Assembly: GCA_026066175.1 (NCBI GenBank)
Contig: GCA_026066175.1_4721.1
Strand: one strand, 5' to 3'
Source of the DNA: a phage
Length of the DNA: 64,000 nt
Position 1 is the stretch's first letter; every line of letters starts with the position of its first letter. Both the position numbers and the translations under genes were made by a program. The notes under the pieces are model-generated. The model had not been told where the DNA came from, did not search any database, and worked only from the letters and a program-made list of their open reading frames with translations. Positions 4,354 through 61,296 of the stretch are shown here, one piece after another.

Positions 4354-4389
4354 GACGGCATAAACCCTCCCCGCGCTATGCAGGGAGGG
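4354..4389 (-). promoter_or_regulatory. GC-rich hairpin plus conserved TTTATGCCGTC motif (terminator / late-promoter-like composite)
   Basis: Minus strand reads hairpin CCCTCCC..GGGAGGG followed directly by TTTATGCCGTC, about 40 nt upstream of the gene start at 4322. Same composite recurs at about 12883, 39180 and 61262. Confidence 0.45.
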
Positions 4390-4412
4390 TAGCCATTGGT
4401 TGTCTTCGCCGG

Positions 4413-5051
4413 TTAGCCTAATTTACCTCCGGCGATGTTCGTGAAGTCTTCACCATCAGGGACCTGCAACAGAATACGTGCCATGTCCCAGTTGGTCAAT
4501 GTGATTGCTTTATCATCGATACTCAGTTCTGGTAGGTCGAGCTCATGATCATCGAACTCGTAGGAAATGCTCCATGTTTCATCAGTTTTAGGATCAGTTA
4601 TCAGCACACCGTCTGTTACACGCATGTAATCAGGGTGCAGCTCATTACTGAACGTGCTGAACGGATCGGTGTAACATTCAGCATAACCCTCGATCTGCTG
4701 ACGCTGTGCCTTCGTACGTAACTCAGGACACGCCATGATCAGCTGTCGGGAAATGCCGTTAGCCGCTCGGAAATCTTCCACGGTGATGCACGGCATCACC
4801 ACATCGTCATGGAAGATATTCTCCGACTGTCTCAACAAGGTCTTACGAAGTTCAGTATAGTTGATCTGATTGAACGTATCGAATGTTGCTAACGATTCCG
4901 CGTAAAAATGCTTTACGTGTTCGTTTGCGCCACCGAGACTGTTCATCAGCTTATGACCATACTCCATAAAGCTTTTATCGAGCCCAGTATTCATTTCTCC
5001 GAACCGTAGTGCACGATAGCTGTCTCGTCCACCTGTAAATATTTGCGCCAT
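4413..5051 (-). CDS. hypothetical protein
   Basis: 212-aa ORF; strong AAAGGAGG SD upstream of the ATG at 5051. Confidence 0.5.
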   Translation of the reverse strand: MAQIFTGGRDSYRALRFGEMNTGLDKSFMEYGHKLMNSLGGANEHVKHFYAESLATFDTFNQINYTELRKTLLRQSENIFHDDVVMPCITVEDFRAANGISRQLIMACPELRTKAQRQQIEGYAECYTDPFSTFSNELHPDYMRVTDGVLITDPKTDETWSISYEFDDHELDLPELSIDDKAITLTNWDMARILLQVPDGEDFTNIAGGKLG

Positions 5052-5066
5052 TACAGGCGTCCTCCT

Positions 5067-5304
5067 TTAGCATTGGTTATTGATTGCTTCTATTTCATCG
5101 ATATACGGTTCTACGTCATCGCCCTCCACGAATTCGTTGAACCAACAGTCAATCGTTGAGATAACCGGTGACTGATGTTCACATTTCTTAGATACCTTAA
5201 ACGGAACGTTGTTATCCATCATACCGAGTTCGGGTCGGAATCGCCCGAAATGTTTCGCAGTCCAAATGTCTGGGACGATATGGTTGTTCATAGCGTCTCC
5301 GTCG
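5067..5304 (-). CDS. RNAP beta-prime N-terminal subunit, exon 3 (starts inside the catalytic DFDGD motif)
   Basis: In-frame codons just upstream of tracked ORF 5067..5291 read C-GAC-GGA-GAC-GCT-ATG = (F)DGDAM, followed by MNNHIVP, matching bacterial beta-prime NADFDGDQMAVHVP. Boundary set after the G that follows the intron S element. Confidence 0.55.
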
Positions 5305-5683
5305 CTGTTTGTCGACTATATCTTCATCTTCATTGCGAAGAGACTCTCGTTTGGGTTTGTGTTTAACAAAGCCTACTCTACTCAACATCGCGTCTTTCGA
5401 TAGTCTGTGAGCACACATCTTAACGAATATTCGTGGGTTCCTACAGACAGGTGAATATTCTTGTTGAGATGCTTCGCTGCGGATTATTCCCGTCCTACCT
5501 CTTTTACCATACCCAGTTCATTACGCTGGCCCTCATCGATGTCACCATGATGAGTTGGTGTGTAGTCCGATTACAGAAACTTCCCGTCAATTAGAGAGTT
5601 TTAACTATGCTCCTGTTACCAGGAACCAGATCCCGACGGCATCAATAAATCAACGTAAGTTATTGATTTAATTGAAAAAACTG
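5305..5683 (-). mobile_element. group I intron B (td-like, ORF-less)
   Basis: Minus strand carries group I core elements in order: Q AATCCGCAGC (5490-5476), R TCACAGACTA (5410-5401), S GATATAGTC (5322-5314), ending in G at 5305. P3-like AACTCTCTAATTGACGGGAAG near 5615. Only about 9 nt separate S from the 3' splice site (short P9). Confidence 0.55.
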
Positions 5684-5696
5684 AAATCTGCATTAT
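5684..5696 (-). CDS. 13-nt micro-exon (AT-AAT-GCA-GAT-TT) encoding the NADF part of YNADFDGD
   Basis: Lies between intron A (ends in G at 5697) and intron B. Splicing exon1-microexon-exon3 gives in-frame ...MILKGS-Y-NADF-DGDAMNNHIVP..., recreating the universal YNADFDGD motif. Both upstream exons end in U as group I 5' splice sites require. Confidence 0.5.
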
Positions 5697-6059
5697 CTAA
5701 ACCTTCGATATGGTTCGCTACGCCATACCCGCACATACGTGCAGCTTACGTCTTTCACGTAAGAAGAGACTATATCTTTCACCCTCAGCTTTACCTGTTA
5801 GGGGCTCCCATTTCGGCGGTCGTTTGACCGGTGGTTTCCCACGCCGCTTGGCCCTAACGCCCGTAAGCGATAGTCGTTGAGCACATCTCCGTTCTGGAGA
5901 CTTCGCTGCGGATTCCCCAATCCTTACTGCTTTTACCGTACCTGAATGATTAGTTCAGCCCCATGCTCTGTTCCCAGGCATGGTTGGTGAGCAAGGCTCT
6001 AAGTAGGTTCCCGCTATTAGAGAGTTCCTCGTGATAGCATTACTGTGTCACTGGGCCTA
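5697..6059 (-). mobile_element. group I intron A (td-like, ORF-less)
   Basis: Minus strand core elements: GGAACTCTCTAATAGCGGGAACC (P3 region), GGTAAAAGCAGTAAGGATTGGGGAATCCGCAGC (Q, 5914-5905), TCAACGACTA (R, 5880-5871), GATATAGTC (S, 5776-5768), then P9 hairpins CTTACGTGAAAGACGTAAG and GCACGTATGTGC. No ORF of 60 aa or more in this stretch. Confidence 0.65.
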
Positions 6060-7305
6060 ATGACCCTTTCAAGATCATCACGCTTAACCCGATGGTATTA
6101 TCCTGCGGGTCGCGTTTAACCTTGGTGATTTCAAGACATTGGTTACTGCTACGGTCAAGTGATGGATTTCGAACAAAGCCACACACAATCCCATCGAACG
6201 GTGTATCAGCAATAAGCTCGTCATGCAGCTCGCTCATCATCGGATGATAATTGCGGACATGCTCTGCAACGAACGCACGGGCTGCTCTTGGTGAATAACC
6301 ACGATGGAATAACTTGGATTGGATATGTTCTTTATTGGTTAGTGTAAATGGTGCGTACGGAAAATGCAGATGATAATAACGATGGTTTGCTGTTATCGAA
6401 CTGATGACCGTACGTGTGGTGAATGGATGTAATGTACCTAATATGTTCTTACGTGTGATCCCTTTCTTCTTACCAATGAACTCATCGAAAATCGCCGAGT
6501 GATACTGCAACAGCTTCAATTGCACTTTCGCCATCCAGTTTTCTTTCTTTCTGGCGCTTAGTGGCGTGGTTGGATGATAGATGCTATTCAATGTTCCGAT
6601 GGCGTCTATCGCACCTTCCATTTTGCTGTCAGCGTAACGTCCTGTTGGCGTGTTCTCGATCACGAACATCATGGCTGCAGGAAAGCTGATGTACTGACTG
6701 AAGAATTTATCCCGATGAATACGGATGAATTCGCGTAGCGTATCAACCTTCTCCATGTTCTTCGGTCCACGTAGTGTTGGGCCTTTATACAAGATCTCCA
6801 TGATACGATCGAAGTTCTGTATAAAGCTATTTATACCGCGTCGTATTCCGAATACATCGAATTGCTGTTCCAGATAGTTCTTAAGTTCGATCGGTCGTTT
6901 TACGTTCGGACGGTAACTGGCATCAATGAGCCACGTCATCGTTTCAAAGCTTTTGATATTCAACTCGCTTGCCAGCACGAGATGGACCAACGGGTTAATG
7001 AACGCATCGATACCTTCCGGTACGCGCGCCCAGACCGTTGAACGAATCTCTTGTTCTGCTGGATAAGTGACAACCGTTTTACAGTTCGGGCACACCGTCC
7101 CTAATAACTCACCGCGATTATAGAAACCACAACCGCATTGCGGGGTGATATCCAAGGTATCGCTAGAGTAAACACGGGTGATGAAACTGTTTAATTTCTT
7201 CTTCTCTTCCACGACCTTCGTATCATAATCGTTCAACAATATCGGCGTAAAAGGAAGTTCTGCGAGCTGTCTATCGAAACTGACGATATCGAGCATGATG
7301 GCCAT
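6060..7305 (-). CDS. RNAP beta-prime N-terminal subunit, exon 1 (non-virion-RNAP-like)
   Basis: Zinc ribbon CGCG..x12..CPNC near the N-terminus. GKKKGITRKNILGTLHPFTTRTVISSI matches beta-prime [25 protein letters not shown]. Tracked ORF runs to a stop at 6040, but homology ends exactly where NADFDGD is expected; predicted 5' splice site is after U at 6060. AGGAG SD upstream of ATG 7305. Confidence 0.7.
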
Positions 7306-7337: not shown

Positions 7338-7371
7338 GGACGTATAAGGGAGGGAGGTTGCCCTCCCTCCC
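7338..7371 (-). terminator. rho-independent-type hairpin downstream of the 632-aa gene, followed by a TTATACGTCC variant motif
   Basis: Perfect 10-bp stem GGGAGGGAGG / CCTCCCTCCC with a 4-nt loop (7348-7371); on the minus strand it is followed by TTATACGTCC and a T-rich stretch before the SD of gene 6060..7305. Confidence 0.5.
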
Positions 7372-7397: not shown

Positions 7398-9296
7398 TTA
7401 GAACAGGTTGAATGCCCCGCCCATGCCGTTACCGCCCACATTCGGACGATCGTTACGTGCGTAGATGTTACCGCTGATGGTACCCAGACCACGAGCACGT
7501 GCTGCCATGTTACCACGAACAGCGGTACCTGCCAGATGCTGGATGTTCTCAGGACGGATGGTGAAGCCTGCTTCAGCAGCCGCTTCAATCAGTGCCTGCA
7601 GCGCCAGCGGATCGAAATCATAACGCATCGCCCAGCCAGTTTGTTCCCAGCTACCAGACAGAACGCGGTCGATGATTTCGTGACGAGCAACCACACGCTG
7701 AGACATCGACATATCGGTACGGTCGAAGCTGTCTTCCCAAGCTTCTACGGTATCCGGGTTAGTGATGTTCATCATGTACAGATCGTCCATATCACGAATA
7801 TCGTGACGGTTACCGTCCTGGTGGTTGTAGTGACCCAGCGGGATACGGTTACCGGTCGCGTAGACCAGCGGTGAGCCGTACGGATATTTCTTGCTGAAGC
7901 AACCCAGGGTAACATCATCGAACGCACGGAAGAGGGCTTTGTAGCCTTCGGAGTATTCCTGTACGTCCCCTTCAACATTACCCGAGAAGATCTTCTCAGC
8001 CGCCGGGATCATACGCAGCAGCCAGCTGTACTCACCTTCTTCTGGTACGTCGATAGAGATCAGCAGAGACGGATACAGAACCTGTTGCAGGAACTTGTAA
8101 ATCTGCTCGTTGGTTTGCGTAGACAGATCCAGCGGTGCAGTCACTTCAGGATCCAGCACCATCGCCAGAGCACCTGGGTTATGCGGACCAATACCACGAG
8201 CTGCGTTGCTGATTAAAGACTGCGCCCACGCCATGCCGCTGTTCAGCGTAGCGATGGTACCAATCAGACCCAGCACGAAGCTGTTCGGCGTGAACGCATC
8301 CAGTTCCAGCGGATACATGCTGGTCATTACGTAGCGCGGTTGGTACTGTACAGTTGGCGGTACCGGATAACCGTTAACCAGAACAGGACCTTGCTGGAAG
8401 GTCGGGTTCTGCGGGCTGTAGGTCAGATCGATATAACCGGTGGATGCAACCAGACGCTGCTGGCTATCGTAATCGCCCATCGCTTGACGGATGCGGTTAG
8501 AGATAGTTACAGTAATGTCGGAGCGTACCGGGTTACCCGCGATATCGCTATCCTGCATGCCGCTGGTGTTATACTGAACGCTACTGATCGGCTGATCGCT
8601 TGCCATCATACCCAGGTTGAACTGAGGCAGGCCCAGTCTGTCAGCAAAACGCATTTCGGTTGCCGTCTGGATCGCGTTATCCGCTGCGGAAAGCAGGGTG
8701 GTTGCCAGATGCGCAGATTCAGCAGTGATTTCATTGGTCACAACAGCCAGACCAGCGATACGTACCGTACCGTTAGCTTTACCACCGATAGCCGCATACA
8801 TCGCTGCCATGACTTCGTTGATGAACGTGCCGTTCAGGTTATCCACCCAAGTACATGGTACCAGGATGTTACCGTGAGGACCACGTTCTTCACGACGTGG
8901 CAGCGGAGCCAGGCCAGCAACCAGCGGAAGGACGTAACCGAAGAAGTGGTTATGATCACCCACTTTTACACCGCTCATCACAACCAGAGTCGGATACGGT
9001 ACGCTGTACTGATTCGGGTCAACCGCAACAAAGATGAAGTCGTCTTTGAACTGGGTATCTTCCAGATATTTCTCCATCAGACGACGGAGATTCAGTACCT
9101 GCTCGGAGCCGGTATTACGGCTGATACGACGGCTCAGTGTACGGTTAATCGTACGCATCGTATGAGTTACTTTAGGACGGTCAGCAAAATCTGCAGCGGT
9201 TTCGACCGCCTCGTTAGCATGCTGCGCCGTGCGGGTTTCAGCCACGCGGATGTCTACGTTATCGTTACCGTTATTGTTACGTACGTCTAAGCCCAT
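7398..9296 (-). CDS. abundant 632-aa protein; candidate phage-nucleus shell protein (chimallin)
   Basis: Size matches characterised chimallins; codon usage looks high-expression (CGT/GGT/CTG-rich). Own upstream promoter-like element and strong downstream hairpin. Lies immediately upstream of a beta-prime N-terminal gene, the arrangement I recall for phiKZ. No sequence comparison was possible. Confidence 0.45.
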   Translation of the reverse strand: MGLDVRNNNGNDNVDIRVAETRTAQHANEAVETAADFADRPKVTHTMRTINRTLSRRISRNTGSEQVLNLRRLMEKYLEDTQFKDDFIFVAVDPNQYSVPYPTLVVMSGVKVGDHNHFFGYVLPLVAGLAPLPRREERGPHGNILVPCTWVDNLNGTFINEVMAAMYAAIGGKANGTVRIAGLAVVTNEITAESAHLATTLLSAADNAIQTATEMRFADRLGLPQFNLGMMASDQPISSVQYNTSGMQDSDIAGNPVRSDITVTISNRIRQAMGDYDSQQRLVASTGYIDLTYSPQNPTFQQGPVLVNGYPVPPTVQYQPRYVMTSMYPLELDAFTPNSFVLGLIGTIATLNSGMAWAQSLISNAARGIGPHNPGALAMVLDPEVTAPLDLSTQTNEQIYKFLQQVLYPSLLISIDVPEEGEYSWLLRMIPAAEKIFSGNVEGDVQEYSEGYKALFRAFDDVTLGCFSKKYPYGSPLVYATGNRIPLGHYNHQDGNRHDIRDMDDLYMMNITNPDTVEAWEDSFDRTDMSMSQRVVARHEIIDRVLSGSWEQTGWAMRYDFDPLALQALIEAAAEAGFTIRPENIQHLAGTAVRGNMAARARGLGTISGNIYARNDRPNVGGNGMGGAFNLF

Positions 9297-9534: not shown

Positions 9535-10629
9535 ATGTTTCGTGTTTTAAATAACCTCCCGCGAACATCATCGGGTGTGCAACCCATCCCTCAGAAAGAC
9601 TACCTAATACGCGAAGTTCAAAGAAACCTACAGACAATCCAGAACCACTATCAAGGTTTTACCTTCGCGGTTCAGAGCGATCACATCCTTGCATTGCTGC
9701 TCGCACAGCTCCCTATGAGATACGACATCTCAGTACAAACTTACTACGACATGATCGCTGACCTTACACCAGAATTGGGGAATCGCGTTAAGCTAACAAC
9801 AGCGCGATACGCGGGTAAGTTATTTAACGGTGCGTTCTATCCAGGATTGCATGAAGCGATCATCGCAACCAGCGAAAGCCGTCTTATATCGCGTGACGTT
9901 CTCGATAACTGGCGTAACTGGTCTCCGGTCAGAATCGTGACACACCCCTACGCGAATCTTCGTTATATCCCTCTGCATCAAAAGCCGGTTGAAGAAGGAC
10001 GGGGTTTTGCAGTTATCATGATCGATGTTCCTTTATTAGCATTGCAGTATCGCATGTGGTCATTGGTCATGGGTCACAACGTCGATGGTAAATGGGTGGT
10101 TAAAGAACCCGTTACAAGTTTCATTGCCAGTTTTCCTTTGGTCAATGCGTTATATACACACAACGACGTGGCTATCCGCAATCGTTGCTTATGGGTACCT
10201 CCGGCTAAGAATCCGCTCAAGTCACCGATTTACGTCAACGATCTGGATAACGTTTTCAGTCAAGTGGTGCTGACCGTCCAACATCAGCTATTACGAAGAA
10301 AACGTAGTTACACCGACATGTTGAAACAGATACCGAGTTTATACGAGGATCAATTTCAAGCAACACGCATGGGTTACACGATCGATCTTCGACAAACACG
10401 GTGGGCAAGGGATCTCGGATGTTTGTCTTTATGGCAACAGCTTGTTACCTTGCAAAACGTTTCAGAAAGCGTCGGCTTCAGTAGTCAAACCGATAACGAC
10501 TTATATCGTGCAGCCGATCGAAGTCTAAAAGAAGGGAACTGGGAATCGTCTCCTTTACCCGGTGATCTACGACGTGAGGTTACCGCACAGGTTGCTGATC
10601 TTTTAAAAATTCTTCCCGCTGGTGTATAA
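9535..10629 (+). CDS. hypothetical protein
   Basis: 364-aa ORF with GGAG SD; diverges from the 632-aa gene across a 238-bp intergenic region. Confidence 0.55.
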   Translation: MFRVLNNLPRTSSGVQPIPQKDYLIREVQRNLQTIQNHYQGFTFAVQSDHILALLLAQLPMRYDISVQTYYDMIADLTPELGNRVKLTTARYAGKLFNGAFYPGLHEAIIATSESRLISRDVLDNWRNWSPVRIVTHPYANLRYIPLHQKPVEEGRGFAVIMIDVPLLALQYRMWSLVMGHNVDGKWVVKEPVTSFIASFPLVNALYTHNDVAIRNRCLWVPPAKNPLKSPIYVNDLDNVFSQVVLTVQHQLLRRKRSYTDMLKQIPSLYEDQFQATRMGYTIDLRQTRWARDLGCLSLWQQLVTLQNVSESVGFSSQTDNDLYRAADRSLKEGNWESSPLPGDLRREVTAQVADLLKILPAGV

Positions 10630-10631
10630 TC

Positions 10632-10663
10632 CCCTCCTCCTTCCCTGATGGGTTGGAGGAGGG
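10632..10663. terminator. bidirectional terminator hairpin between convergent genes
   Basis: 9-bp stem CCCTCCTCC / GGAGGAGGG with a 14-nt loop; near-identical to the hairpin at 60128-60160. Confidence 0.5.
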
Positions 10664-10668
10664 TTATG

Positions 10669-12822
10669 TTACTCTGCGGTTTCTTTTTTCGGTTGGTAGC
10701 TTGCAGCGATATCTTGGGCTAACAGTGTGTTGTTTTTATTCGAAATGAAAATACCGTAACTTTCCATTAATGCGTAATACGAGCGAACGAGTGTAGAAAT
10801 CAATCGACGAATATCCATACCTTGGATGAAAATATCGGGAAGCCCAGAGGCTTCGATCACCGGTAATGGTATCGTTAAATTGCTTATCGTTTTCTTATCG
10901 TTACGTACAATCCAATCACGGAAACGTTGTTGTAACCCTTTATCCTCCCAGGAATCAATCCAATCATTAAGAAGCGTTTTGTTCTTCGTTGCCAATGGTA
11001 CACGAACCCCAACATAAGGCGGTTCAGGGCAATGGCCGTACGATTGCGCAAACACCTCTTCCCACATGTCGTACGACTGCTTGGTAACCGCAACATGGGG
11101 TTTTACTTTAACGCGTGTTAAGAAATCAGGATCGCCGCGTTTCATCGATTCCACGATTTCGTTTTCTAACGCGATGATATCATCAAGTACCAATCTGATA
11201 CTGATCTTCTCGTTACGTAACAGTTTATCCATGATACCGCACATCATGCGCTCAACACGTTGTACGATCATTTTTGGTGCTGATGCGTCACGCATAACGG
11301 GACCTTTCAATTCCAGTTTCGGCGGATTGATTGGAACCCCTTCACGCATGGTCATGTAACCGTAATAGTTTTTACCCATTGAAGTCAACGACAGAATCAA
11401 GAACATATACTCGTTCTTCATTTCCATCACGTACATATGCTCTTTCGCGACGCCGATATTACCCGAACACATTGCCATCAGATGAACCGTAATCTGCGTA
11501 ACCAGGTAGATAAGCGTATTCGCTAAGCGCGTTGAAATCGGATTGATCTCCATGTTGCCAAACCGCCACTGAACCCACTCCTGACAGGTAAATACCGTTG
11601 AGTCGGTATCAGACAACACACCCACTTCACGGATGGCTGACGGAAACGCATAAACACCAGCGGGTTGGTTCTCGGTACGCCAGAACGCCATAATCAGGTC
11701 AGCGTAACTCTGGATACGCTGCAACATTAACTTTGTCGTGGCTGCGGTGAGACGATAACCCAGTTCGTTGCCTTTTTCTAACGCAACGTAAATCGCTTCA
11801 CCATTTAAGAACTCGGTACACTGTGCTGTAATCCAGGCAACCGTGTTATTATCCATGGATGCAATAATGGCTTTCGCCTCTTCCATCGTTTCAACAGGTT
11901 CGGTGGCCAATTCACATAACGAATCAAGGAACCCACGAACAAACTCAGGGTTCAGTTCGCGTAACGAATACAAGTTGTTGCTATACATGTAACAAGCACG
12001 TTCCAACGGCGTTAAGCCGTTAATCAACTCCTGAATGACCAGTTCTTTTTCCGGGTCGAAAATATAGCGATGCAGGCATTTTGATACATTAGCCCAAACC
12101 TCTTCCGGTGTCGGGTAATGTAGCTGGTATTTTACCATCACCTGCTCAATGGCTTTACGGTCGCTGTTACGGACAATGCTTACGATATTTTCAATCGCGA
12201 TATCACAATCGTAATAATGAAAATTACCTGCCAGGAACCGTTCGTTATTCGCATTCGCTGAACCGGAAGCGCATCGGCATGTCGTGGTTAAACTCGGGTG
12301 TGCGATCGGGTTATAAAAAGGATTGAATTTAGATGCCTGTGTTCCCGACAAACTGTTGTTGTCTAACTTGGTATTGGTCTGTCGTTTATCATGCAGTTCC
12401 GCTTCGTCTTTACGTCCATGCGCTTGTGCAATAGACATCTGTTTCTTTTGTTTCTTACGCAGCTTACCGTTTTCAACCGCAAAGTCGCTTAACACGCTGG
12501 AACGTGTTTCACGTGGATAACAGTTCGCCCATACCGGGGTAATGATTAAATTATTTTCTTTGATATCGTTGATATACTGACTGAACTTAATAAGTTCTTT
12601 TTCGCGGTTCCCTTCTGTACGTTGTGTTAAAACAAGACAGTCGGGATCGACCATCCCATGTGCACCACCTGGCTTGATGGTATCAAGTACGAACCGTAAT
12701 GCTTCTTGTTGAGAAATACCACGCATGCGCATTAAGAACAGGGTATAATCCTGCACCGCTTCTTTGGTCATATCCAACGTACGACCGTATCCGTTTTCGT
12801 CGTAAAAGAACGGATTTTCCAT
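10669..12822 (-). CDS. large hypothetical protein with polymerase-like motifs (possible divergent family-B-type DNA polymerase domain)
   Basis: 717-aa ORF, GGAGG SD. Motifs in family-B order: YSNNLYSL (motif A-like), KLMLQRIQSYA (motif B-like), VLSDTDSTVF (YGDTDS-like motif C), GKNYY (KxY-like). Weak; no Walker motif. Confidence 0.35.
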   Translation of the reverse strand: MENPFFYDENGYGRTLDMTKEAVQDYTLFLMRMRGISQQEALRFVLDTIKPGGAHGMVDPDCLVLTQRTEGNREKELIKFSQYINDIKENNLIITPVWANCYPRETRSSVLSDFAVENGKLRKKQKKQMSIAQAHGRKDEAELHDKRQTNTKLDNNSLSGTQASKFNPFYNPIAHPSLTTTCRCASGSANANNERFLAGNFHYYDCDIAIENIVSIVRNSDRKAIEQVMVKYQLHYPTPEEVWANVSKCLHRYIFDPEKELVIQELINGLTPLERACYMYSNNLYSLRELNPEFVRGFLDSLCELATEPVETMEEAKAIIASMDNNTVAWITAQCTEFLNGEAIYVALEKGNELGYRLTAATTKLMLQRIQSYADLIMAFWRTENQPAGVYAFPSAIREVGVLSDTDSTVFTCQEWVQWRFGNMEINPISTRLANTLIYLVTQITVHLMAMCSGNIGVAKEHMYVMEMKNEYMFLILSLTSMGKNYYGYMTMREGVPINPPKLELKGPVMRDASAPKMIVQRVERMMCGIMDKLLRNEKISIRLVLDDIIALENEIVESMKRGDPDFLTRVKVKPHVAVTKQSYDMWEEVFAQSYGHCPEPPYVGVRVPLATKNKTLLNDWIDSWEDKGLQQRFRDWIVRNDKKTISNLTIPLPVIEASGLPDIFIQGMDIRRLISTLVRSYYALMESYGIFISNKNNTLLAQDIAASYQPKKETAE

Positions 12823-12882
12823 AAACCCTCCAAAAGTCGTGTAGCCTATCTACATCATCTCGTATATCTGTTAAAAAAGAAA

Positions 12883-12925
12883 GACGGCATAAAAAAGAAC
12901 CGATCCAGCCGAAGCCAGATCGGTT
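12883..12925 (-). terminator. rho-independent terminator plus conserved TTTATGCCGTC motif
   Basis: Minus strand reads AACCGATCTGGCTTCGGCTGGATCGGTT hairpin (8-bp stem), then CTTTTTTATGCCGTCTTTCTTTTTT, about 65 nt upstream of ATG 12822. Confidence 0.55.
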
Positions 12926-16930: not shown

Positions 16931-16987
16931 AAACTCTCCTACACGGCATAAAAGCCTGCCCCGAAGGACAGGCTCATCATGATACTT

Positions 16988-25464: not shown

Positions 25465-25484
25465 CTATGTTTATTATGCTGTCT

Positions 25485-41657: not shown

Positions 41658-43178
41658 TTACACCTCGCTAATCTGAATAACGTAAAGCTGCTGGGCCACG
41701 TAATCGGTGGTCAGATGCATCGTTGCGATCGTTGCCGCTTCGAAAACGGTAAGCTCGGGACGTTCGCGCATGATCAAATCGATTTCATCGATCAAACGGT
41801 TAACGCCCTGGGCGTCTTCATGATGCATGACTTTGACGTATAGCGTACGGAAGTATTGCTGGAAATTAGCCACGTCGGTATCGGTCAGATTAGCCACTTC
41901 ACCGCGTACGATTTCCAACACTTTCTTACGGGTGTCTTCATCGAGGTCTACCGTAATCAAATCAGCAAATACACCCTGCAGCGCCAACGCGTATGCGCGT
42001 AAGCGGTTTGCAGCTTGCTGGCTGGCTTTCATGTTAATGTAGTTACGATAGTGCTGCATGAAGCCTGCACCGTTCGCTAACAGTTCATCTTTGCTTATGA
42101 GTTCACGTTCCAACAGAACCGCTGCGGTTAATGCTTCTGGTGAACCACCTTCTTGCAGATAACTCATGTAGACATCGGCGTTAACGAAGATCGTCATCGT
42201 TGATGCATCTTCGGCACGTTGAATCTGAGATGCGGATGGCGCAGAAAGAATCAGTTCACCACGCTCCATACGCAGGATACGATCACGACCAATACGTGCC
42301 ATCCCGTTGATCGCTGCACTACGGGCCTGTTGCATCTTCGCACGATAGTTCTCGAGCATCATGTCGTTACCGTCCTGGATATCTTCCAGTAGGTTAACCG
42401 CCCACATATAGCAGAGGAAAGCCGGGGTTGCAGCGGCACGTGAACCCTGGAAGGCGACGTTGTCGCTATCCGGATACGCGATCAGGAAAACGTTGTTGGT
42501 AGCGGATGCCGAACCACGGAAGAAATGGTTGTAAATATCTTCCAGTGCTTGATCGCTCATTCCTTCGGTTGCTTGCTGGACGAAACGGTCCAGGTTTTCA
42601 TTACCGGTATACAACAAAGTGCGGAGTTTGTCGCCGGTGATATAGGCCAGCTTCTCGGTTGGGGTAAACTCATTGTTAACATCGATCAGGCCGTTAAGGT
42701 TATACTCACCCACCAACGCCTGATATTCTTCAGAGTTATAAAACTCAGGATAGTAACTCAAACTTACTGTCGGGATCAGTTTAGGTGCCAGGATGATCGC
42801 GTCGATGCGTTTTTCCAGTTCCGGGTACAAGGCACGGCATTTCGGCAGGATGGTATTACGCGCCAGCTCTTTGGCATACACCACCTTTTCCACCACGTCT
42901 TGAACTGCGGTCTGTAAAACTTCATCATGAATATAAACCTCGCGTTCGCCAGCAGGTCGTACGACACCGTCCTCGGTTTCATCAAGGGTTTCAGCGACCA
43001 CCACACGCTCAGCACTCAGCTGTACTAATGCATCAGCATCTTCTGGCGGTTGGTTCCAATGCATAGTTTCACAAACCGCAGCAAGCGGGGTACCTGGAAT
43101 TGCTGCAACGATCTGGTTGCGTTTAATAAACCCTTCAACGATCGGCTCAACGGCATAAACGGTTTTATTGGTAATCAT
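41658..43178 (-). CDS. hypothetical protein
   Basis: 506-aa ORF; no RNAP motifs recognised despite lying in the RNAP operon. Confidence 0.5.
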   Translation of the reverse strand: MITNKTVYAVEPIVEGFIKRNQIVAAIPGTPLAAVCETMHWNQPPEDADALVQLSAERVVVAETLDETEDGVVRPAGEREVYIHDEVLQTAVQDVVEKVVYAKELARNTILPKCRALYPELEKRIDAIILAPKLIPTVSLSYYPEFYNSEEYQALVGEYNLNGLIDVNNEFTPTEKLAYITGDKLRTLLYTGNENLDRFVQQATEGMSDQALEDIYNHFFRGSASATNNVFLIAYPDSDNVAFQGSRAAATPAFLCYMWAVNLLEDIQDGNDMMLENYRAKMQQARSAAINGMARIGRDRILRMERGELILSAPSASQIQRAEDASTMTIFVNADVYMSYLQEGGSPEALTAAVLLERELISKDELLANGAGFMQHYRNYINMKASQQAANRLRAYALALQGVFADLITVDLDEDTRKKVLEIVRGEVANLTDTDVANFQQYFRTLYVKVMHHEDAQGVNRLIDEIDLIMRERPELTVFEAATIATMHLTTDYVAQQLYVIQISEV

Positions 43179-43411
43179 TACTGCGCTCCCTCCAACGCGT
43201 TGTTACGTACCGGCTCTTTGGTTTCCAGACGGCTGTTCAAGCGCGCAGCAACCGCATCTTCCAATCCCAACGGCATAACCTTTTTATTCACATCAGGATC
43301 CGCTGCATCGTTACCGACGGTCTGACGGACGACCTCAGCAACCAACGTTACCGCGTTCGTCAGCGCAACAAAGCTCGCTGCCCGAGCCGTATTAAGTTGT
43401 TCTTGGTTCAT
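43178..43411 (-). CDS. small hypothetical protein
   Basis: 77-aa ORF filling the gap between two larger genes. Confidence 0.35.
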   Translation of the reverse strand: MNQEQLNTARAASFVALTNAVTLVAEVVRQTVGNDAADPDVNKKVMPLGLEDAVAARLNSRLETKEPVRNNALEGAQ

Positions 43412-43471
43412 TCACTTTTCCTTTACCACGTTCAGCGAAATAAATGAGCAGGGGCATAACGCCCCTTGCTC

Positions 43472-44602
43472 TTATTTGGCTTCATTAAAATAAATATCAA
43501 CGGCACGTTCCGTTGCGTAGAGAAGACCCAGATTCACGGTCCCTACCACTTCCGGTGAACCGATGATACGGTTAGCGATACTGGTGCCACTGAAGATAGC
43601 ATCAAGGGTGTGCCCGTCTTCGGTTTTGTTCACACCATGACCCACGGAAGAGACAACGGATTTCGCCTGTGCGGCGAAGGTACCTTTATCCCCCATTCCC
43701 GCACCAAGGTCGTAACGCATGAAAATACGGATCGCGATCTGGTTCTCACCTAACGGATTACCGTCTATTCTCACGTTACTGTTATTGATGCGTCCCGTTG
43801 TTGCTTCGTTGAGTTTCAGTTCCTTAACACGTTTAGCTCGCGCCTTATCAGCGTCACCCACAAGTGCTGCCATGGTTTCGCTCATGTCTTCAATCTGAGC
43901 GCGGTACAACACATCGATCTGTACGACTTCACCATGCACGTCAGCGCGTGGGTTATACTGACTCATACGGCGTAACGCTTCAACCGCTTCCTGACTTTCA
44001 TCGCTCAGATCGGTTGCAATAGGTTCTTCCAGTGTTGCCAGGATCGTCCGAGGTTCAACATGATCGCCGATTTTCACCAAACCACGAATGTTGAGATGAG
44101 CGTCAACAATGAGCGTACGGCTCTTAATCGATGGGGTTACGAGACGATCGGCAAGATTGTCGAAGATATACGAACTGTCCTCGTGCGTTTCTGGAATATC
44201 CAGAATACCAACCAGAGACAACACGCCTGCGCGCCAAACAACCTGACCTGGGTTCCACCAATCCCGTTTAAAATAAAGACGATGGAAAACCACTACATCC
44301 TGGTCCTTAACGCGATCCCCGACTTTATAATCGGTAATGAGATCGTGAGGATAATACTTACCTGGTCCTTTCCCGATTATCGTACCGAGTTGGAAAACCT
44401 CTTCCCCTAATTCTGGATCGTCGTATTGTATCGTAAGCGCTGTTTTGGTGACCTTCTTCACAACACCATCGCCTTGAGCAGCTGCTGCGAAGAGTTTACC
44501 AACACGATGCGCGATAACAGTCTCGCCACCAGTGCGCCATGGTTGTACGTCGTAACCTTCAGCGGCTATCATGCGGTTGTGTTGGATGCCTATAAACACC
44601 AA
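43472..44602 (-). CDS. RNAP beta subunit, middle segment (probable exon 2 of an intron-split beta gene)
   Basis: [28 protein letters not shown] matches beta [35 protein letters not shown]...[21 protein letters not shown] matches beta GRHGNKGVIS...[22 protein letters not shown]. The tracked ORF begins at a TTG, not ATG, consistent with an internal exon. Confidence 0.6.
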   Translation of the reverse strand: [376 protein letters not shown]

Positions 44603-46273
44603 TCTCTTGGGCGAATTTAGTTCTTATTCAGTATTAACATACCGTTACCGAAATAAGACTGAGATTAGATTGTTCAGATAAGGTCGTTAATCTTATCCCG
44701 GAGGTGATGATAGGCACATCACCTCCCGCTTACGTTCTCACGCAAGAGCAGACTATATCACATCTCGTTTCAAACGGTGCTTCTTCAGCACCTCAACGAG
44801 AGTTCACTTCTTCCCAGCGCATCCAGCGCCATTCTCTTATCCAAGGAGAATGCCTCACTCGAGGGGTACAGGGGGATGAATCCCTTAGTCGTTGAACCGT
44901 CACCCTAGAACGTTTCACAACGATCCTTAGGCGATTGGCTGCGGATTACCCTTGGCCTGCGGACCACGAACTTTTGTCGCGGTCAACTCTTCATTTTTAA
45001 AGCCTGCTTCACGAGCAATACGTCTCGCTTCTCGCACGTCTAACGTTTCCGTTTCCGCTTTGGCTGAAGGCAGCATTGGGCGTCCCCGCAATTCAATGAA
45101 TCTCGTCCATACGTCACCGTATAAACGGACCCGCTCTTTGTAAACAGAATAGTAGATATAACGTTTTCCGTCAGGAAATTTAGTCATTCCATCCGACTTT
45201 AAACGGTAATTGAGTAACGTAGTAGATATACCCATTTCTTCAGCGCAATCGACGGCCGAAAGGTACAACAGAGGTACATCATTTTCAGGAATGACGACAA
45301 TAGCACGTTTGTTGGTTGTCTTCTCCAACTCCAGGATACTATCTTCGACTTCTCGCCATGGCGTCTCATCAGTAACCCACTTAACTTGATAACAACCATT
45401 AACGACAGGTTGGTTCTTGTCGTTAACGTACATCGACGCAGTGGATAACTTAACACCAATGTGATTCGCGAATTCAGTCAATGATTCGAAAAGATGAATC
45501 TCTTTTGTTATCGTTGACCTTGCAATCACACCCTTACTTCCCGTATCCGTCAACGTTGCTAACTCGTATTTGGTGGGAATACGCCATGGTTCATCGCCGT
45601 AATCTTTGCGGTACTGCTTACGTTCAGGAAACGCTCGCTGTTTGCCTCTATAGACACGATGATGAATGAAGTCGATATTCACACCAAGATCGCGTGCCGC
45701 TTCCGTCATGGATGGATATCTGGTTACAACACCGGTATCAACATCACGAACCTGAATAGGTTTACCGTAGGCAGCAATTGAACGTTTACGCATGTTCATA
45801 ATGCGAGCATGCTGATTGTTCTCTTTCTGCGTAACCCATTCAAGATTGTCATTCTCGGCGTTACCGTCGGGATCAAGGTAGTTATTAAGTCTGTTGCCGT
45901 CCTTGTGGTTCACATGGAGCAAATGCGCATCATCGATGTTACGGAACGTTAACATTAGAAGCCTGTGCATGGAACGGTAAACCAATGTTCCATCGTGACC
46001 TCGAAACGAATAACGATAATACCCAGCAATGATGGTGGGCAAATATTCAAACTTCGATTCCTTGTTACGCAATGTTCCATCTATGGATATCTCCAGGAAC
46101 GGGAATTCCGGTACGGTCTTAAATACCTTCTCACTCATTGACTATATTCCTCTTGTGCAGTGAAACTAACTACACTTTCGTAATATAGCCTTAATTCTGT
46201 TTACATTGAAGCCTTAATCATCTCTATCAGCAGCAGGTACTGCAAGTGCTGATGTACTCATTATTGACGAGCT
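44603..46273 (-). mobile_element. group I intron (td-like) carrying an HNH homing endonuclease ORF; boundaries approximate
   Basis: Minus-strand core elements 3' of the HNH ORF: Q GGGTAATCCGCAGCC (overlapping the last HNH codons, about 44950-44937), R GGTTCAACGACTAAGGG (about 44899-44883), S GATATAGTC (about 44760-44752), then P9-like hairpins. Beta homology in the upstream ORF ends at ...SVYGETKPYDEKTDG. Confidence 0.55.
44927..46138 (-). CDS. HNH homing endonuclease (intron-encoded)
   Basis: 403 aa; HNH motif HVNHKDGNRLNNYLDPDGNAENDNLEWVTQKENNQHA; basic C-terminal DNA-binding-like region; lies between two beta segments. Confidence 0.8.
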   Translation of the reverse strand: MSEKVFKTVPEFPFLEISIDGTLRNKESKFEYLPTIIAGYYRYSFRGHDGTLVYRSMHRLLMLTFRNIDDAHLLHVNHKDGNRLNNYLDPDGNAENDNLEWVTQKENNQHARIMNMRKRSIAAYGKPIQVRDVDTGVVTRYPSMTEAARDLGVNIDFIHHRVYRGKQRAFPERKQYRKDYGDEPWRIPTKYELATLTDTGSKGVIARSTITKEIHLFESLTEFANHIGVKLSTASMYVNDKNQPVVNGCYQVKWVTDETPWREVEDSILELEKTTNKRAIVVIPENDVPLLYLSAVDCAEEMGISTTLLNYRLKSDGMTKFPDGKRYIYYSVYKERVRLYGDVWTRFIELRGRPMLPSAKAETETLDVREARRIAREAGFKNEELTATKVRGPQAKGNPQPIA

Positions 46274-49200
46274 ACCATCCGTTTTCTCGTCGTAGGGTTT
46301 CGTTTCACCGTATACAGACACAATGTTTGCGTTAGGTGCGAGGTAAGCAGAAATACCTACGTCCCCACTATCCTTCGTACCTTCGGATACAACACCAATG
46401 TCCGACTTGTCGTACTCACGATCGCGTGCGCGTCGAAGCGATGTTTTCGAACGACCCCCGATACCGGTCATCGTTGCTTCTTCACCCTGCTTGATATCCA
46501 GCATCGGGTTGGTTTCATCGATGACGATAGAAGCACTGTCGTCAAGGATTTGGTTCCAAACGCTCACCGGACTGATTGAGATCTTCTGTCGGTTGCCTTG
46601 GCTGCTGTTCTCGTTTTGACGAATAGCACCAACCAGATCCTTATACACCAACTCAGCGAACTTATCGTACGTTTTGAAGCGCTGGTAGTTCACGTCGTTC
46701 GTGTTAGGTGCCCAATCGTCCAGAAGCAGTTCAACCGCACGTAATAACAACATGGCGAAATCAGTCGGTTCGCCCATGTTCTGTAATAACGTACGACTTA
46801 CCGGGTCGACGAAAAGACGCTCCATGAGTTCAAGTTCGCGAAGATGACGAACCTTAAGACCTGCACCATCGACAACGTTAAAATAGATATCCCGATTGTC
46901 GAAAGCACCTCGAGCGTAACCAATGTAGTTACGGTATTCGTTGAATCCGCCTAACAACAATGTCGTCATTCGATCATCTTTACTGAAGATCAAACTTTCA
47001 TCGTCGAAGCTCACCGCGAATTCATCCGATGCTAATCCCATACGAGAACCACGAGGTACCGTACGGTAGTTCGCTTTAAGATGTTCTAATAACGGTGTAA
47101 GACCACCTAAGTAACTTAACACAACACCAACCGGAATACGTACGCCCATGAACTCAAGGTCAGCGGCTTCGATGGGCATCTTCGCGGCATTGATACCGAA
47201 GAAATCAGGGAACGTTCCAACCGGCGTTGGGGTTTGATTCGGTTCGTAAACGTATAACTGATTCTGACCATCCACCGCCAGGAATTCGCCGTTGGTGTTT
47301 TTGGCGAACGTTAAGAATCCACCCGCCAGCTGTTCGGTGAATAAATCTTCACCGATGTGTTCCGGCAACGTTTTGATATCGAGGCGTATGTCCCAATCCG
47401 CAAATTGGATTTGGGTGTAGTTACGTGCAAGCACCGCGAAGTAATACGGAACTTTGACAGACGGATCAAAGACGTTACCACGTTTTAAGGTGGTTAAGGG
47501 CGAGGTTTTATCGTAATACATCGCTGTGAGTTGACGTGTTAACCAACGACCAGCATTATTAACCACGCGTTCTGAACGCTTAACGAACACCTTACCGTAG
47601 GCGGTACTCAACGCAACTTCGGATGACGATACCTTTCTGATTGGTTTATCGACACGTTGTTTACGCATTCGATATTTAATGCCGTTAACGACATAAATGC
47701 CGTCCTTACGAACCTTCGGTAACATCACCGGGAACGTGGTCGGAACACCGCCTACCGGAGCCAGCTTGATCGTGATGACCTGGTAATCACCCATCACGTC
47801 AACAACATCTTCAACTTTATATCCGGTAACAGGATAGCCCGCTTGCTGCACCGCCACAACGGCTGCTGCGATGTCCTTTTGCATGACATGTTCGACGTAG
47901 TGTTTATCCCATACGGCAAGCGTCGATTTGCACAAGCTCTTATCAACGATAACGTCCGCTTCCGGCATCACCTTCTCAGGTGCTAATTTCGCGGCTTTTG
48001 GTTTAACCTCAACGTATTCAGCAAGCGTGAGTCCAGAACCGTCAGGTGCTTCAATTTCATGAATCGCGTCAGCGTTACGCATCGCTGCTTTATATTGAAC
48101 GCCGCTTAATTGACCAGCATCCGCGAGGTCGCTTGCACGTACCAGCACTGCATCGGATAACGACTGAATATATTCACCGTGCGTTTTCGGTAACGTTGCC
48201 GCATCGAAGACATCAACTTTTTCTTCCGGCATGTCATCGTTGACAACCTCAAAGAGATCATCGGTGATGTCTTGATCTTCGTCCGGTTGAAAATCGGGCT
48301 GAACTTCAACGCCAGGGACTTCACGAACATCTTCAAACGCACGTTCAACAACCGCGTTCCATGCTTCAGCGTCGTCATCTTCATCCGATCCTCCGATCAA
48401 CTCGCTTTCCAGTTCATCGGGGTCAAGAACGGTATCAAGGTCCTCACCGTTAGGAAGCACGACATCACGTTCATCGTACTCCGCATCGGGACTGTCTGCG
48501 AGAATATCACGCTCTTGACGAAGAACCTGCTCCTCTTCTTGTTTCTGTTCTTCTTCATTGGCGCTCTGCGACCACAGACGGGTTACCGCCATCATCCAAC
48601 GACGCTGGAACGTTTCAAGCGTTGTCTTATCAAGTTCCTCGCCTTCCTTCGCTAAACCCGAACGCCATTCTTCCATTAAACCAAGATTCAGAGTAAAGAA
48701 ATAGACGCCGTCCGTAAATACAACGTTAAGCTTATCCAGCGAAGCACGGTCCAATGATACCATCGTGCTGTTCTCACGATCGACACCTAACCAACGGAAG
48801 AAGTCAAAGAACGACAGCTCCTCGGAGGTGGCAAAATTCATGAGGTTATTACGGGTTGGGGCTTGTTGTGTCGTACGCATCAACGATATCTTCGGTAACG
48901 TCGACGGGATACGGAATAACAAGAACTGCTGACGGTCGCTTTGTTGGGCGATCTCGTTTGCTTGCGTCCAAATCGTTTTACGCACGTTGAACCATTCATC
49001 ATACCAACGGGTCAGTGTCGGACGATAGATGTACATGTGGTTAAGATGCGCATAGTTAGCCACGATCTGGGCGTTGATGTTCTTCTCAACCTTGCTAAGA
49101 TCGGTGACCAAACGAAAACGACGATGCGATGCACGGTAATCCAGTTTCGCACGCGGTAGCTGGAATCGCTGATCGCGTCGAGGTGCGCCTTGCTTGGTTG

Positions 49201-49423
49201 CAAGATCATCCGCGAATGATATCCAAAGCTGGGCGCTTTCTTTGCTCAGCATGTATTCGTTTTCAGGAGGACCGATTAACGAAGGATCGGTTGCTGTATA
49301 ATGATAAACCGCATAACGCGGCAGCTGCAAAAGCTGCACCAAACGCAATCTAGGTGATAATAACTCTTGATAACGTCGTACACCGAATTGTCTGTAGTAA
49401 TCAAGGTATTTAAGTTTTGCCAT
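46214..49423 (-). CDS. RNAP beta subunit, N-terminal segment (virion-RNAP-like set); last ~20 codons may be intronic read-through
   Basis: 1069 aa. C-terminal TGIGGRSKTSLRRARDREYD...EGTKDSGDVGISAYLAPNANIVSVYGETKPY matches beta LGPGGLTRERAGFEVRDVH...[30 protein letters not shown]. Start is translationally coupled to the upstream beta-prime gene. Confidence 0.6.
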   Translation of the reverse strand: MAKLKYLDYYRQFGVRRYQELLSPRLRLVQLLQLPRYAVYHYTATDPSLIGPPENEYMLSKESAQLWISFADDLATKQGAPRRDQRFQLPRAKLDYRASHRRFRLVTDLSKVEKNINAQIVANYAHLNHMYIYRPTLTRWYDEWFNVRKTIWTQANEIAQQSDRQQFLLFRIPSTLPKISLMRTTQQAPTRNNLMNFATSEELSFFDFFRWLGVDRENSTMVSLDRASLDKLNVVFTDGVYFFTLNLGLMEEWRSGLAKEGEELDKTTLETFQRRWMMAVTRLWSQSANEEEQKQEEEQVLRQERDILADSPDAEYDERDVVLPNGEDLDTVLDPDELESELIGGSDEDDDAEAWNAVVERAFEDVREVPGVEVQPDFQPDEDQDITDDLFEVVNDDMPEEKVDVFDAATLPKTHGEYIQSLSDAVLVRASDLADAGQLSGVQYKAAMRNADAIHEIEAPDGSGLTLAEYVEVKPKAAKLAPEKVMPEADVIVDKSLCKSTLAVWDKHYVEHVMQKDIAAAVVAVQQAGYPVTGYKVEDVVDVMGDYQVITIKLAPVGGVPTTFPVMLPKVRKDGIYVVNGIKYRMRKQRVDKPIRKVSSSEVALSTAYGKVFVKRSERVVNNAGRWLTRQLTAMYYDKTSPLTTLKRGNVFDPSVKVPYYFAVLARNYTQIQFADWDIRLDIKTLPEHIGEDLFTEQLAGGFLTFAKNTNGEFLAVDGQNQLYVYEPNQTPTPVGTFPDFFGINAAKMPIEAADLEFMGVRIPVGVVLSYLGGLTPLLEHLKANYRTVPRGSRMGLASDEFAVSFDDESLIFSKDDRMTTLLLGGFNEYRNYIGYARGAFDNRDIYFNVVDGAGLKVRHLRELELMERLFVDPVSRTLLQNMGEPTDFAMLLLRAVELLLDDWAPNTNDVNYQRFKTYDKFAELVYKDLVGAIRQNENSSQGNRQKISISPVSVWNQILDDSASIVIDETNPMLDIKQGEEATMTGIGGRSKTSLRRARDREYDKSDIGVVSEGTKDSGDVGISAYLAPNANIVSVYGETKPYDEKTDGSSSIMSTSALAVPAADRDD

Positions 49424-60110: not shown

Positions 60111-60127
60111 TATTCGCTGCATAGAGC

Positions 60128-60160
60128 CCTCCTCCTTCCCTTCCGGGTTGGAGGAGGGCT
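60128..60160. terminator. bidirectional terminator hairpin (same repeat family as 10632-10663)
   Basis: Stem GCCCTCCTCC / GGAGGAGGGC with loop TTCCCTTCCGGGTT. Confidence 0.5.
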
Positions 60161-60164
60161 TATG

Positions 60165-61232
60165 TTAACCTAACGTCACCGTCGGTAAATCAGGATAAAG
60201 TTTCTTCAAGCCTGCCATCGTGGTGGTAGTTGTATAATTCTTACCCATCACAGCAAGAGATGCGTATTTCCTACTGCGGGAGAAAAGAGAATAGAACCCA
60301 CTGGATGTTTCCATCCACATCGTGAGACGTTCTGCATCCTTACCGTGATAGTTCGTTTTACCCCATCCCGGTTTAAACGCATCAGCAAAATCAATTAAAC
60401 GTGACGCTTCAGCGTCGTATTCTTTAAGGGTGATGTACGACGGTATACGGTAGTTGCGAAATAGCAAAGTGATGAGTTCAGGGACCACACTACGTGCGCG
60501 TTCAGCCGTAATGAGTTCGGTAATAACGGCAGCTGTACGGAAATCACCGTTCTGACCAACGCTACTTAATGACTCTGCTAAAGTGGTTGCCATCGCCACT
60601 TTATCTTCCGCTGATCCTGAATCATACAAACTACGCACGTCGATATAGTTGCCCGCTAATGCAGCTTGACGAATCAACGACGTAACAACAGTTTGGTTCG
60701 TCTTGTAGTCGTTATAGCTGAACGACGTACGTTCCTTTCCTTGGTCAGAAAGATACTTATCAACGATCGTAGACAGTTTGTAATACTCATCGCCAGACAT
60801 CAGACTGTCGAGAAGTTTTACATTACCCTCTTTATCGATAAGCTTCCCTAGCGCACCATTAGACTGTTGGTTGATGGTGCTGTAAATCTGATCTTTGACT
60901 TGCGATAAGATGTTATCCGTTGATGTGATATTCAAGCCGGTAACATCTTTGATCTTATTCATTAACGCGTTTTCATTCAGCGAGATTTTACCGCCGCTGA
61001 TGTCAATAAAGGAGTTAAGATCGCTGATGGAAATCAGGTTTCCTGTTAACGCCGATAATGTACTGTTGATGCTATTCGTAATACTGCTACGAAAACTGGT
61101 TAATGCGTCTGCTGCTGAAACAGCGGTACCGCTAACCGCTTTAAGGAGCGTATCACGCCCGGTTGAAAAATCGCTGGTGATGGTTTTGATCTTGGACGTA
61201 TCTATACTCGGCAGTTTGTCGTAAAGACTCAT
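60165..61232 (-). CDS. hypothetical protein
   Basis: Start at M18 of the tracked ORF (AGGAGG SD); about 355 aa. Confidence 0.5.
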   Translation of the reverse strand: MSLYDKLPSIDTSKIKTITSDFSTGRDTLLKAVSGTAVSAADALTSFRSSITNSINSTLSALTGNLISISDLNSFIDISGGKISLNENALMNKIKDVTGLNITSTDNILSQVKDQIYSTINQQSNGALGKLIDKEGNVKLLDSLMSGDEYYKLSTIVDKYLSDQGKERTSFSYNDYKTNQTVVTSLIRQAALAGNYIDVRSLYDSGSAEDKVAMATTLAESLSSVGQNGDFRTAAVITELITAERARSVVPELITLLFRNYRIPSYITLKEYDAEASRLIDFADAFKPGWGKTNYHGKDAERLTMWMETSSGFYSLFSRSRKYASLAVMGKNYTTTTTMAGLKKLYPDLPTVTLG

Positions 61233-61261
61233 CACGTCCTCCTGAAAAAGAAAAAAGAAAT

Positions 61262-61296
61262 ACGGCATAAAGCCTACCCACACAATGGTGGGTAGG
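61262..61296 (-). promoter_or_regulatory. terminator hairpin plus TTTATGCCGTA motif
   Basis: Minus strand 11-bp-stem hairpin AGCCTACCCAC / GTGGGTAGGCT followed by TTTATGCCGTATTTCTTTTTT, about 26 nt upstream of ATG 61232. Confidence 0.5.

Follow-up and report, generated by a model that had tools for sequence, protein, structure and literature searches.

Recurring GC-rich hairpins with a TTATG-type tail at gene ends of a Goslar-like jumbo phage resemble the terminators of phiKZ

The DNA analyzed here, a 64,000-nucleotide stretch of a phage genome (contig GCA_026066175.1_4721.1 of NCBI GenBank assembly GCA_026066175.1; referred to as the window), carries recurring units in which a GC-rich hairpin is followed by TTTATGCCGT. 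Genes in the window included those for the nuclear shell protein (chimallin), PhuZ tubulin, DNA polymerase, tail sheath, and terminase, together with several phage RNA polymerase subunits. The sole megablast match of region 38000-46000 was Escherichia phage vB_EcoM_Goslar (87.9% identity), the large terminase showed 99% protein identity with that of Goslar, and the gene order was syntenic with Goslar from ~163.6 to 228 kb. Judged by this gene content and synteny, the source is a nucleus-forming jumbo phage (chimallivirus) and a close relative of the E. coli phage Goslar. By analogy with phiKZ, its transcription would be performed by two multisubunit RNA polymerases of its own; matches to sigma-70-type promoters were not enriched (27 vs 33.6 expected). 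The genome of Goslar (NC_048170.1), with 247 annotated genes, was used for whole-genome counts.

The composite consisted of a hairpin, 0-6 nucleotides (nt) that were mainly T, and then TATGC(C/T)G(T). Sites were found by energy-based and regex-based scans; hairpin energies at the reported sites were between -16.5 and -23.3 kcal/mol, and the hairpins adjoined upstream stop codons (just 3'). A preliminary description of this DNA had noted four copies (T1, T3, T6, and T7) and a TTATACGTCC variant (T2), all of which were located on the minus strand where it had placed them. An exact-type fifth copy (T4) had been overlooked, and the looser copies T5 and T8, as well as four bidirectional hairpins at convergent gene ends, were absent from its list. 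The features, named according to the interpretation given below, were as follows.

4353..4390, minus strand: putative terminator T1; hairpin ACCCTCCCTGCATAGCGCGGGGAGGGT at 4364-4390 and tail TTTATGCCGTCT (-22.1 sense vs -18.1 antisense kcal/mol), between the homologues of Goslar gp184 and gp183.
7338..7371, minus strand: putative terminator T2; hairpin GGGAGGGAGGGCAACCTCCCTCCC at 7348-7371 (arms GGGAGGGAGGG/CCTCCCTCCC) and the variant tail TTATACGTCC, directly 3' of the nuclear shell (chimallin) gene (7398..9296) and ahead of an RNA polymerase subunit gene.
12882..12925, minus strand: putative terminator T3; hairpin at 12898-12925, spacer CTTT, and tail TTTATGCCGTCT, upstream of the DNA polymerase gene (10669..12822); the only composite copy with a canonical T-run.
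16941..16975, minus strand: putative terminator T4; hairpin at 16952-16975 and TTTATGCCGTGT, followed by a ribosome-binding site (RBS) and the ATG at 16930.
37598..37641, minus strand: putative terminator T5 (loose variant); hairpin at 37612-37641 with three G·U pairs (-23.3 sense vs -13.5 antisense kcal/mol) and TGGTTATGTCAAGG.
39179..39223, minus strand: putative terminator T6; hairpin at 39195-39223, spacer ACTT, and tail TTTATGCCGTCT, 3' of the head maturation protease gene.
61260..61298, minus strand: putative terminator T7; hairpin at 61271-61298 and TTTATGCCGTAT (tail ending in CCGTAT), 34 nt before the start at 61232.
43435..43471, minus strand: putative terminator T8 (looser copy); hairpin at 43446-43471 and ATTTATTTCGC, the K=T form of TTATKYYG.
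10622..10672, both strands: putative bidirectional terminator of convergent genes; hairpin at 10632-10663, which is free of G·U pairs, with TTATGTTAC on the plus strand and GATTATACAC on the minus strand.
25427..25484, both strands: putative bidirectional terminator; hairpin at 25436-25464, with CTATGTTTATTATGCTGTCT on the plus strand and ACTATGGGG on the minus strand; there is no plus-strand gene downstream.
36550..36615, both strands: putative bidirectional terminator; hairpin at 36568-36605, with TATGGTTTAT on the plus strand and GTAATATGTTTTTTTTTT on the minus strand.
60115..60170, both strands: putative bidirectional terminator; hairpin at 60125-60160, with TATGTTAACC on the plus strand and CTATGCAGCG on the minus strand.
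33433..33440, minus strand: TATGCCGT without a hairpin, in a divergent gap.
2867..2922, minus strand: comparison hairpin at 2885-2922 (-29.7 kcal/mol) with the plain T-rich tail CCCTTCTTTTTCTTTTTG and without TTATG; the strongest hairpin of the window, with five G·U pairs, so that two tail types are present in one genome.

The Goslar record carries putative terminator annotations at the hairpins orthologous to three of these sites: 176545-176568 (T3), 180588-180607 (T4), and 207198-207223 (T8). The distance from the tail to the next start codon, previously described as 25-100 nt, was about 37, 66, 99, and 34 nt.

The units of a GC-rich hairpin and TTTATGCCGT were confirmed as a real and strongly non-random feature. 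TATGCCGT occurred 8 times in the window (2.1 expected), always on the minus strand, and TTTATGCCGTCT at up to 2 mismatches occurred 12 times (5.4 expected), a count reached by no shuffle. Five of the eight copies of TATGCCGT immediately followed a hairpin of -16.5 to -22 kcal/mol; the minus strand contains only ~17 hairpins of -16.5 kcal/mol or stronger in 64 kb, and the chance probability of this adjacency was ~1e-12 by a rough binomial estimate. In the sense-oriented intergenic DNA of Goslar, TTTATGCC was the top enriched 8-mer (6 sense, 0 antisense, and 0 coding). TAT[GA]C was found within 7 nt of a strong hairpin at 39/96 intergenic vs 38/666 coding positions of that genome, and 20 of its 22 intergenic TATGC[CT]G sequences directly followed a hairpin. 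Two other copies of TATGCCGT in the window, at 43150-43157 and 43270-43277 (minus strand), lay in coding sequence without hairpins, the former at the start region of gene 41658..43178 and the latter within 43178..43411, and are probably due to chance or codon usage; the copy at 43270 is also kept in Goslar (at 206988).

A promoter tail is expected to track gene starts, and a terminator tail gene ends. On convergent gap strands, which follow a stop codon and have no co-oriented gene downstream, the composite was present in 18/32 cases in Goslar and 8/8 in the window. The corresponding values for divergent gap strands, which precede starts only, were 1/40 and 2/12 (both weak). In tandem gaps, the sense strand carried it in 33/104 (Goslar) and 11/21 (window) cases, and the antisense strand in 6/104 and 2/21 cases, respectively. 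Fisher tests for Goslar gave 1.6e-7 for convergent vs divergent strands and 1.7e-6 for sense vs antisense strands of tandem gaps. All four convergent hairpins of the window possessed a TATG or TATA tail on each strand. The distribution of the composite therefore matches the expectation for terminators: it marks the 3' ends of genes and not their starts. Short spacers in tandem arrays put each terminator just upstream of the next gene, which gives it a promoter-like appearance.

The hairpins of T1 and T3-T6 and the comparison hairpin (2885-2922) contained 1-5 G·U pairs on the sense strand. In these six, the G·U pairs correspond to A·C mismatches on the opposite strand, and the sense fold was 4-11 kcal/mol more stable. 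T2, T7, and T8 had no such G·U pairs, and their stability differed little between the strands; likewise, the four bidirectional hairpins lacked strand-biased G·U pairs and had approximately equal stability on either strand. Since strand-biased G·U pairs were found in most one-way hairpins, the function appears to be exerted at the level of RNA (the transcript). For the same reason, namely that these pairs make most one-way hairpins strand-specific, a DNA-level role (a cruciform aiding promoter opening) was rejected. Membership in a known RNA family was also rejected: the Rfam matches were group I introns only. In an attempt at a covariance model, 22 Goslar sites were aligned with MAFFT; the stems were out of register, and RNAalifold gave no pairs.

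By Oxford Nanopore Technologies (ONT)-cappable-seq, 133 termination sites have been mapped in phiKZ (Putzeys et al. 2024, PMC10914365), and 61 mapped terminators have BCCYCCCCHWWDGGGRRGGBYTTATKYYGT in common (PMC10914365). A closely similar motif (motif A) is present at 59/132 termination sites of 201phi2-1, and a reporter assay showed that eight terminators tested from 201phi2-1 arrest transcription (PMC11512511). TTATGCCGT conforms exactly to the phiKZ tail TTATKYYGT, which was matched in the window at 4355, 12884, 16943, 39181, 61262, and 25474 (plus strand); tail variants were TTATACGTC, TTATGTCAA, and TTATTTCGC. The longer GGBYTTATKYYGT was found in two exact copies and a third with one mismatch. 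Arms of the CCCTCC.../...GGAGGG type were shared by T1, T6, the four bidirectional hairpins, and most Goslar sites; those of T2 were the same in reversed order (GGGAGGGAGGG/CCTCCCTCCC), and T3, T4, and T7 had other GC-rich stems.

The anatomy, the genome-wide placement, the strand specificity, and the match with the published motif are direct observations. We estimate at roughly 0.8 the probability that the units are factor-independent-type terminators of a chimallivirus, namely a lineage variant of the phiKZ-type class that is new for a Goslar-like phage. No earlier report of this motif in Goslarvirus was found in the literature searched. According to the mechanism proposed, the nascent RNA would form a GC-rich hairpin in which C/U usually predominates in the 5' arm and G/A in the 3' arm. 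This hairpin would be followed by the lineage-conserved tail UUAU-G-CC-GU (TTATKYYGT in phiKZ) in place of a long U-run, and the polymerase would halt and release inside the tail. Where genes converge, a single symmetric hairpin, flanked by a TATG/TATA tail on either strand, would serve both directions. We infer that RNA 3' ends are located at these units in the window phage, and that the tail acts as a pause/release element.

Several results weigh against this reading. The full 30-nt phiKZ consensus had 0 matches in the window at up to 3 mismatches, because the fixed 8-4-7 stem-loop geometry is exceeded by the stems and loops of the window, which are also more varied; CCCTCCC/GGGAGGG arms are present in some copies only. 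When a canonical U-tract test (at least 5 T in 8) was applied to a scan of 1-20000, T1, T2, and T4 failed. Hairpin 12898-12925, as the only composite, and the comparison hairpin 2885-2922 passed; failure of most copies is as expected for a TTAT-type tail. Furthermore, literature searches yielded no transcript-end data for Goslar or the window phage, and the phiKZ and 201phi2-1 papers leave termination and 3' processing undistinguished (PMC10914365, PMC11512511).

The tails were conserved beyond the window. At all orthologous sites compared, they were identical to those of Goslar except for the last base at site 1 (CCGT vs CCGC in Goslar), and loops and some stem positions varied between the two phages. 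GGCCCTCCCTTCGGGGAGGGCTTTATGTTGT was found 3' of the major capsid gene in the phiKZ-like phage fnug, TTATGCTGT and TTTATGTTGT in PA7, and TTATGCCGTC, which is identical to the tail of the window, in Erwinia phage Ea35-70; SPN3US and Vibrio phage pir03 had plain T-rich tails instead. A literature search for the string TTATGCCGT gave a sole match, the published end-closing polymerase chain reaction (PCR) primer of the Klebsiella jumbo phage Miami, TTTATGCCGTCTCCCCCTCT (PMC7844079); to judge from this primer, the same tail sequence is also present in phage Miami. The 9-nt post-hairpin tail is common to Pseudomonas, Erwinia, and E. coli phages in which the shared proteins tested were only ~25-40% identical. 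Such sharing suggests that some conserved component of the phages recognizes the tail, the most plausible candidate being their RNA polymerases. How phage multisubunit RNA polymerases terminate has received very little study, and terminators are unmentioned in a 2026 jumbo phage review. For annotation, the motif reliably indicates where transcription units end in Goslar-like and Erwinia Ea35-70-like phages.

The motif also reveals start codons that were assigned wrongly because a gene caller took its ATG. As the preliminary description had pointed out, one open reading frame (ORF) call, 3522..4361, begins at the ATG of the T1 motif (4361-4359); the real start of this gene is at ~4322. Three annotated starts in Goslar are located 1 nt after the motif T: gp047 (end 49772), gp111 (end 117666), and gp183 (end 166924). 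The tail-ATG starts are probably mis-called; better starts with ribosome-binding sites were found 20-40 nt downstream of the tail ATG.

The most probable alternative is that each unit joins a terminator to a late promoter. The non-virion polymerase would then initiate at the G in TATG and create a stop-restart junction, possibly at a subset of sites and besides termination. We consider this unlikely. Such a coupled device had been proposed at the outset. Its terminator half was borne out by hairpins after stop codons and the three Goslar terminator annotations, and no positive evidence was obtained for its promoter half, leaving a dual role unsupported. The argument that ATGCCGTC is unneeded for termination, and hence belongs to a promoter, was not supported: the mapped phiKZ terminator motif already contains the tail (PMC10914365), and the composite is nearly missing from divergent gaps, in which promoters have to be located. 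Since TTATGCCGT fits TTATKYYGT exactly, the seemingly extra ATGCCGT belongs to the known terminator. On the other hand, the late promoters of phiKZ, which are used by the non-virion RNA polymerase, have TATG as an essential core with G as +1 (PMC4666361, PMC12809450), and single substitutions in it strongly lower transcription (PMC4666361). The noted resemblance to this core was therefore literally correct: TATG was present in the tails of T1, T3-T7, and 7/8 convergent-gap tails, and Goslar-type tails had G as their fourth base much more often than any other nucleotide. Four letters are too short to be diagnostic, however, and TATG was missing from T2 (TATA), T8 (TTATT), and the minus-strand tail at 10622-10631 (TATA). 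TATA tails occurred at 7338-7347 in the window and at 113373, 170951, and 186055 in Goslar, and the phiKZ consensus permits T at this position. The reference late promoter P119L (tgctatattgcTATGtagacag) has no hairpin and no KYYGT.

Some arguments for a promoter concern individual copies and their sequence. Only 12 nt separate the tail of T4 from the RBS and ATG, leaving no space for another promoter, and because phiKZ needs an undefined sequence 3' of TATG, TATGCCGT, as an extended form, could represent a start region that has been optimised. The hairpin-less TATGCCGT at 33433 is the only copy with a promoter-fitting position: it lies in a divergent gap, with a virion structural gene next to the tail sheath starting 17 nt downstream, and is kept in Goslar. 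However, it was not conserved at the corresponding position in Ea35-70, PA7, or SPN3US. The composite as a whole occupied 18/32 convergent vs 1/40 divergent strands in Goslar. In the window, each of the four convergent gaps carried it on both strands, although such gaps have no gene of the same orientation downstream. The DNA polymerase and RNA polymerase subunit genes located downstream of some copies are not typical late genes, and the ONT-cappable-seq papers give promoters upstream of terminators, with no starts reported at tails. A related idea, to which we give a low probability, is that the TATG of the tail is no coincidence: the pocket with which the non-virion polymerase reads non-template TATG at late promoters might capture the tail during elongation, causing a sequence-specific pause immediately 3' of the hairpin that replaces the long U-tract and could allow restart at the same G. 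If this is true, one short element would mark both the starts and ends of transcripts in nucleus-forming phages.

A role in RNA 3'-end processing or stability, in which a host or phage endonuclease cuts in the single-stranded UUAUGCCGU tail, or the RNA is trimmed to a protective hairpin, appears improbable. The U-tract is weak by bacterial standards, a single-stranded tail conserved across phages of different hosts resembles a protein recognition site, and mapped 3' ends fit termination and processing alike. However, 201phi2-1 terminators with the related motif block a reporter in uninfected P. chlororaphis, equal to or better than lambda T0 (PMC11512511), and this block without infection fits termination by a generic polymerase. 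A hairpin with a short tail also has the geometry of an intrinsic terminator, and no candidate nuclease is known. A small palindromic repeat (repetitive extragenic palindrome (REP)- or miniature inverted-repeat transposable element (MITE)-like) that spread through intergenic DNA without a specific role in transcription is hardly credible: some bidirectional cassettes are near-identical over ~45 nt, but stem sequence and length vary widely while the tail and the orientation relative to genes are kept, tandem gaps show sense-strand specificity, and the same architecture with other stem sequences is found in phages of other genera.

The near-identical ~45-nt cassettes (CCCTCCTCC..GGG..GGAGGAGGG with TTATG flanks) were located at convergent gene ends: 10632-10663 and 60125-60160 in the window, and 27780, 72024, 93479, and 134620 in Goslar. 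One cassette copy was present right at the termini of the Goslar record (27 / 237279), followed by a poly-A run. To judge from this recurrence, terminator cassettes may have been duplicated as a whole or spread by gene conversion.

Short RNAs from 5'-untranslated regions that end at terminators are known in phiKZ (PMC10914365) and 201phi2-1 (PMC11512511). Two unusually long gaps in the window, 39087-39370 (284 nt) and 12823-13131 (309 nt), both on the minus strand, were located upstream of T6 and T3, respectively, and the former contained TATG (CCGTTATGGACACC) ~80 nt upstream of the T6 hairpin. By analogy, small RNAs may be produced in these gaps.

Among other features of the window, an insertion of ~1.6 kb (44603-46213, minus strand) splits an RNA polymerase beta-like gene into exon 1 (46214..49423, residues 1-1069) and exon 2 (43472..44602, residues 1073-1448); the gene is a single 1448-amino-acid ORF in Goslar (gp207). 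Within the insertion lie a group I intron (Rfam RF00028, 44729-45152, 51.4 bits) and a 403-amino-acid ORF (44927..46138) that is 27% identical to Goslar gp206. The Goslar intron with gp206, which lies between gp207 and gp205, is missing in the window. By sequence comparison, this locus differs in intron presence or absence between two close phages. Two adjoining group I intron-like segments on the minus strand, 5305-5674 (49.1 bits) and 5746-6083 (27.9 bits), were found downstream of gene 6040..7305, which encodes an RNA polymerase subunit; at the same place, the annotation of Goslar gives a single intron with an HNH endonuclease gene (gp186), and this endonuclease ORF is absent from the window. 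A second octamer, TATATTAC, occurred five times (2.0 expected), always on the minus gene strand: 3496-3503, 9367-9374, 38277-38284, 46180-46187, and 62431-62438. Four copies were intergenic and closely preceded genes, among them the nuclear shell gene, and that at 46180 was within the intron insert, ahead of the ORF that this insert holds. The octamer was also present upstream of PHIKZ121 in a phiKZ-like phage and looks like the core of an early, virion-polymerase promoter; a literature search for the string returned noise only.

Signals of phage polymerases that do not depend on a U-run are known: the class II termination signal of T7 RNA polymerase is sequence-specific (ATCTGTT). It resembles the units described here in that a phage polymerase is halted at a short sequence, and tails such as TATGCTGTT hold CTGTT; however, the T7 enzyme is an unrelated single-subunit polymerase, and its signal is hairpin-independent; the resemblance may be a coincidence. 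The late promoters of phiKZ share the tetranucleotide TATG with most of the tails, but P119L and the like lack both the upstream hairpin and the conserved downstream sequence found here, and the composite is distributed like terminators and includes TATA variants. Canonical Rho-independent terminators have in common with the units a stable GC-rich hairpin that is followed by a short U-containing stretch and located after genes. They differ in that most copies here have only UUUAU, then G/C-rich sequence, in that a specific non-U tail is conserved, and in that phage-encoded polymerases rather than the host enzyme are concerned. The terminator motif of phiKZ and 201phi2-1 is similar in its GC-rich stem-loop (often CCCTCCC.../...GGGAGGG) followed by TTAT and K-YY-GT, its location after stop codons, and its bidirectional forms between convergent genes, and these phages are also nucleus-forming jumbo phages with their own multisubunit RNA polymerases. 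In contrast to that motif, the tail here varies less (TTATGCCGT or TTATGCTGT) and shows a strong preference for G, and the host is E. coli and the genus Goslarvirus.

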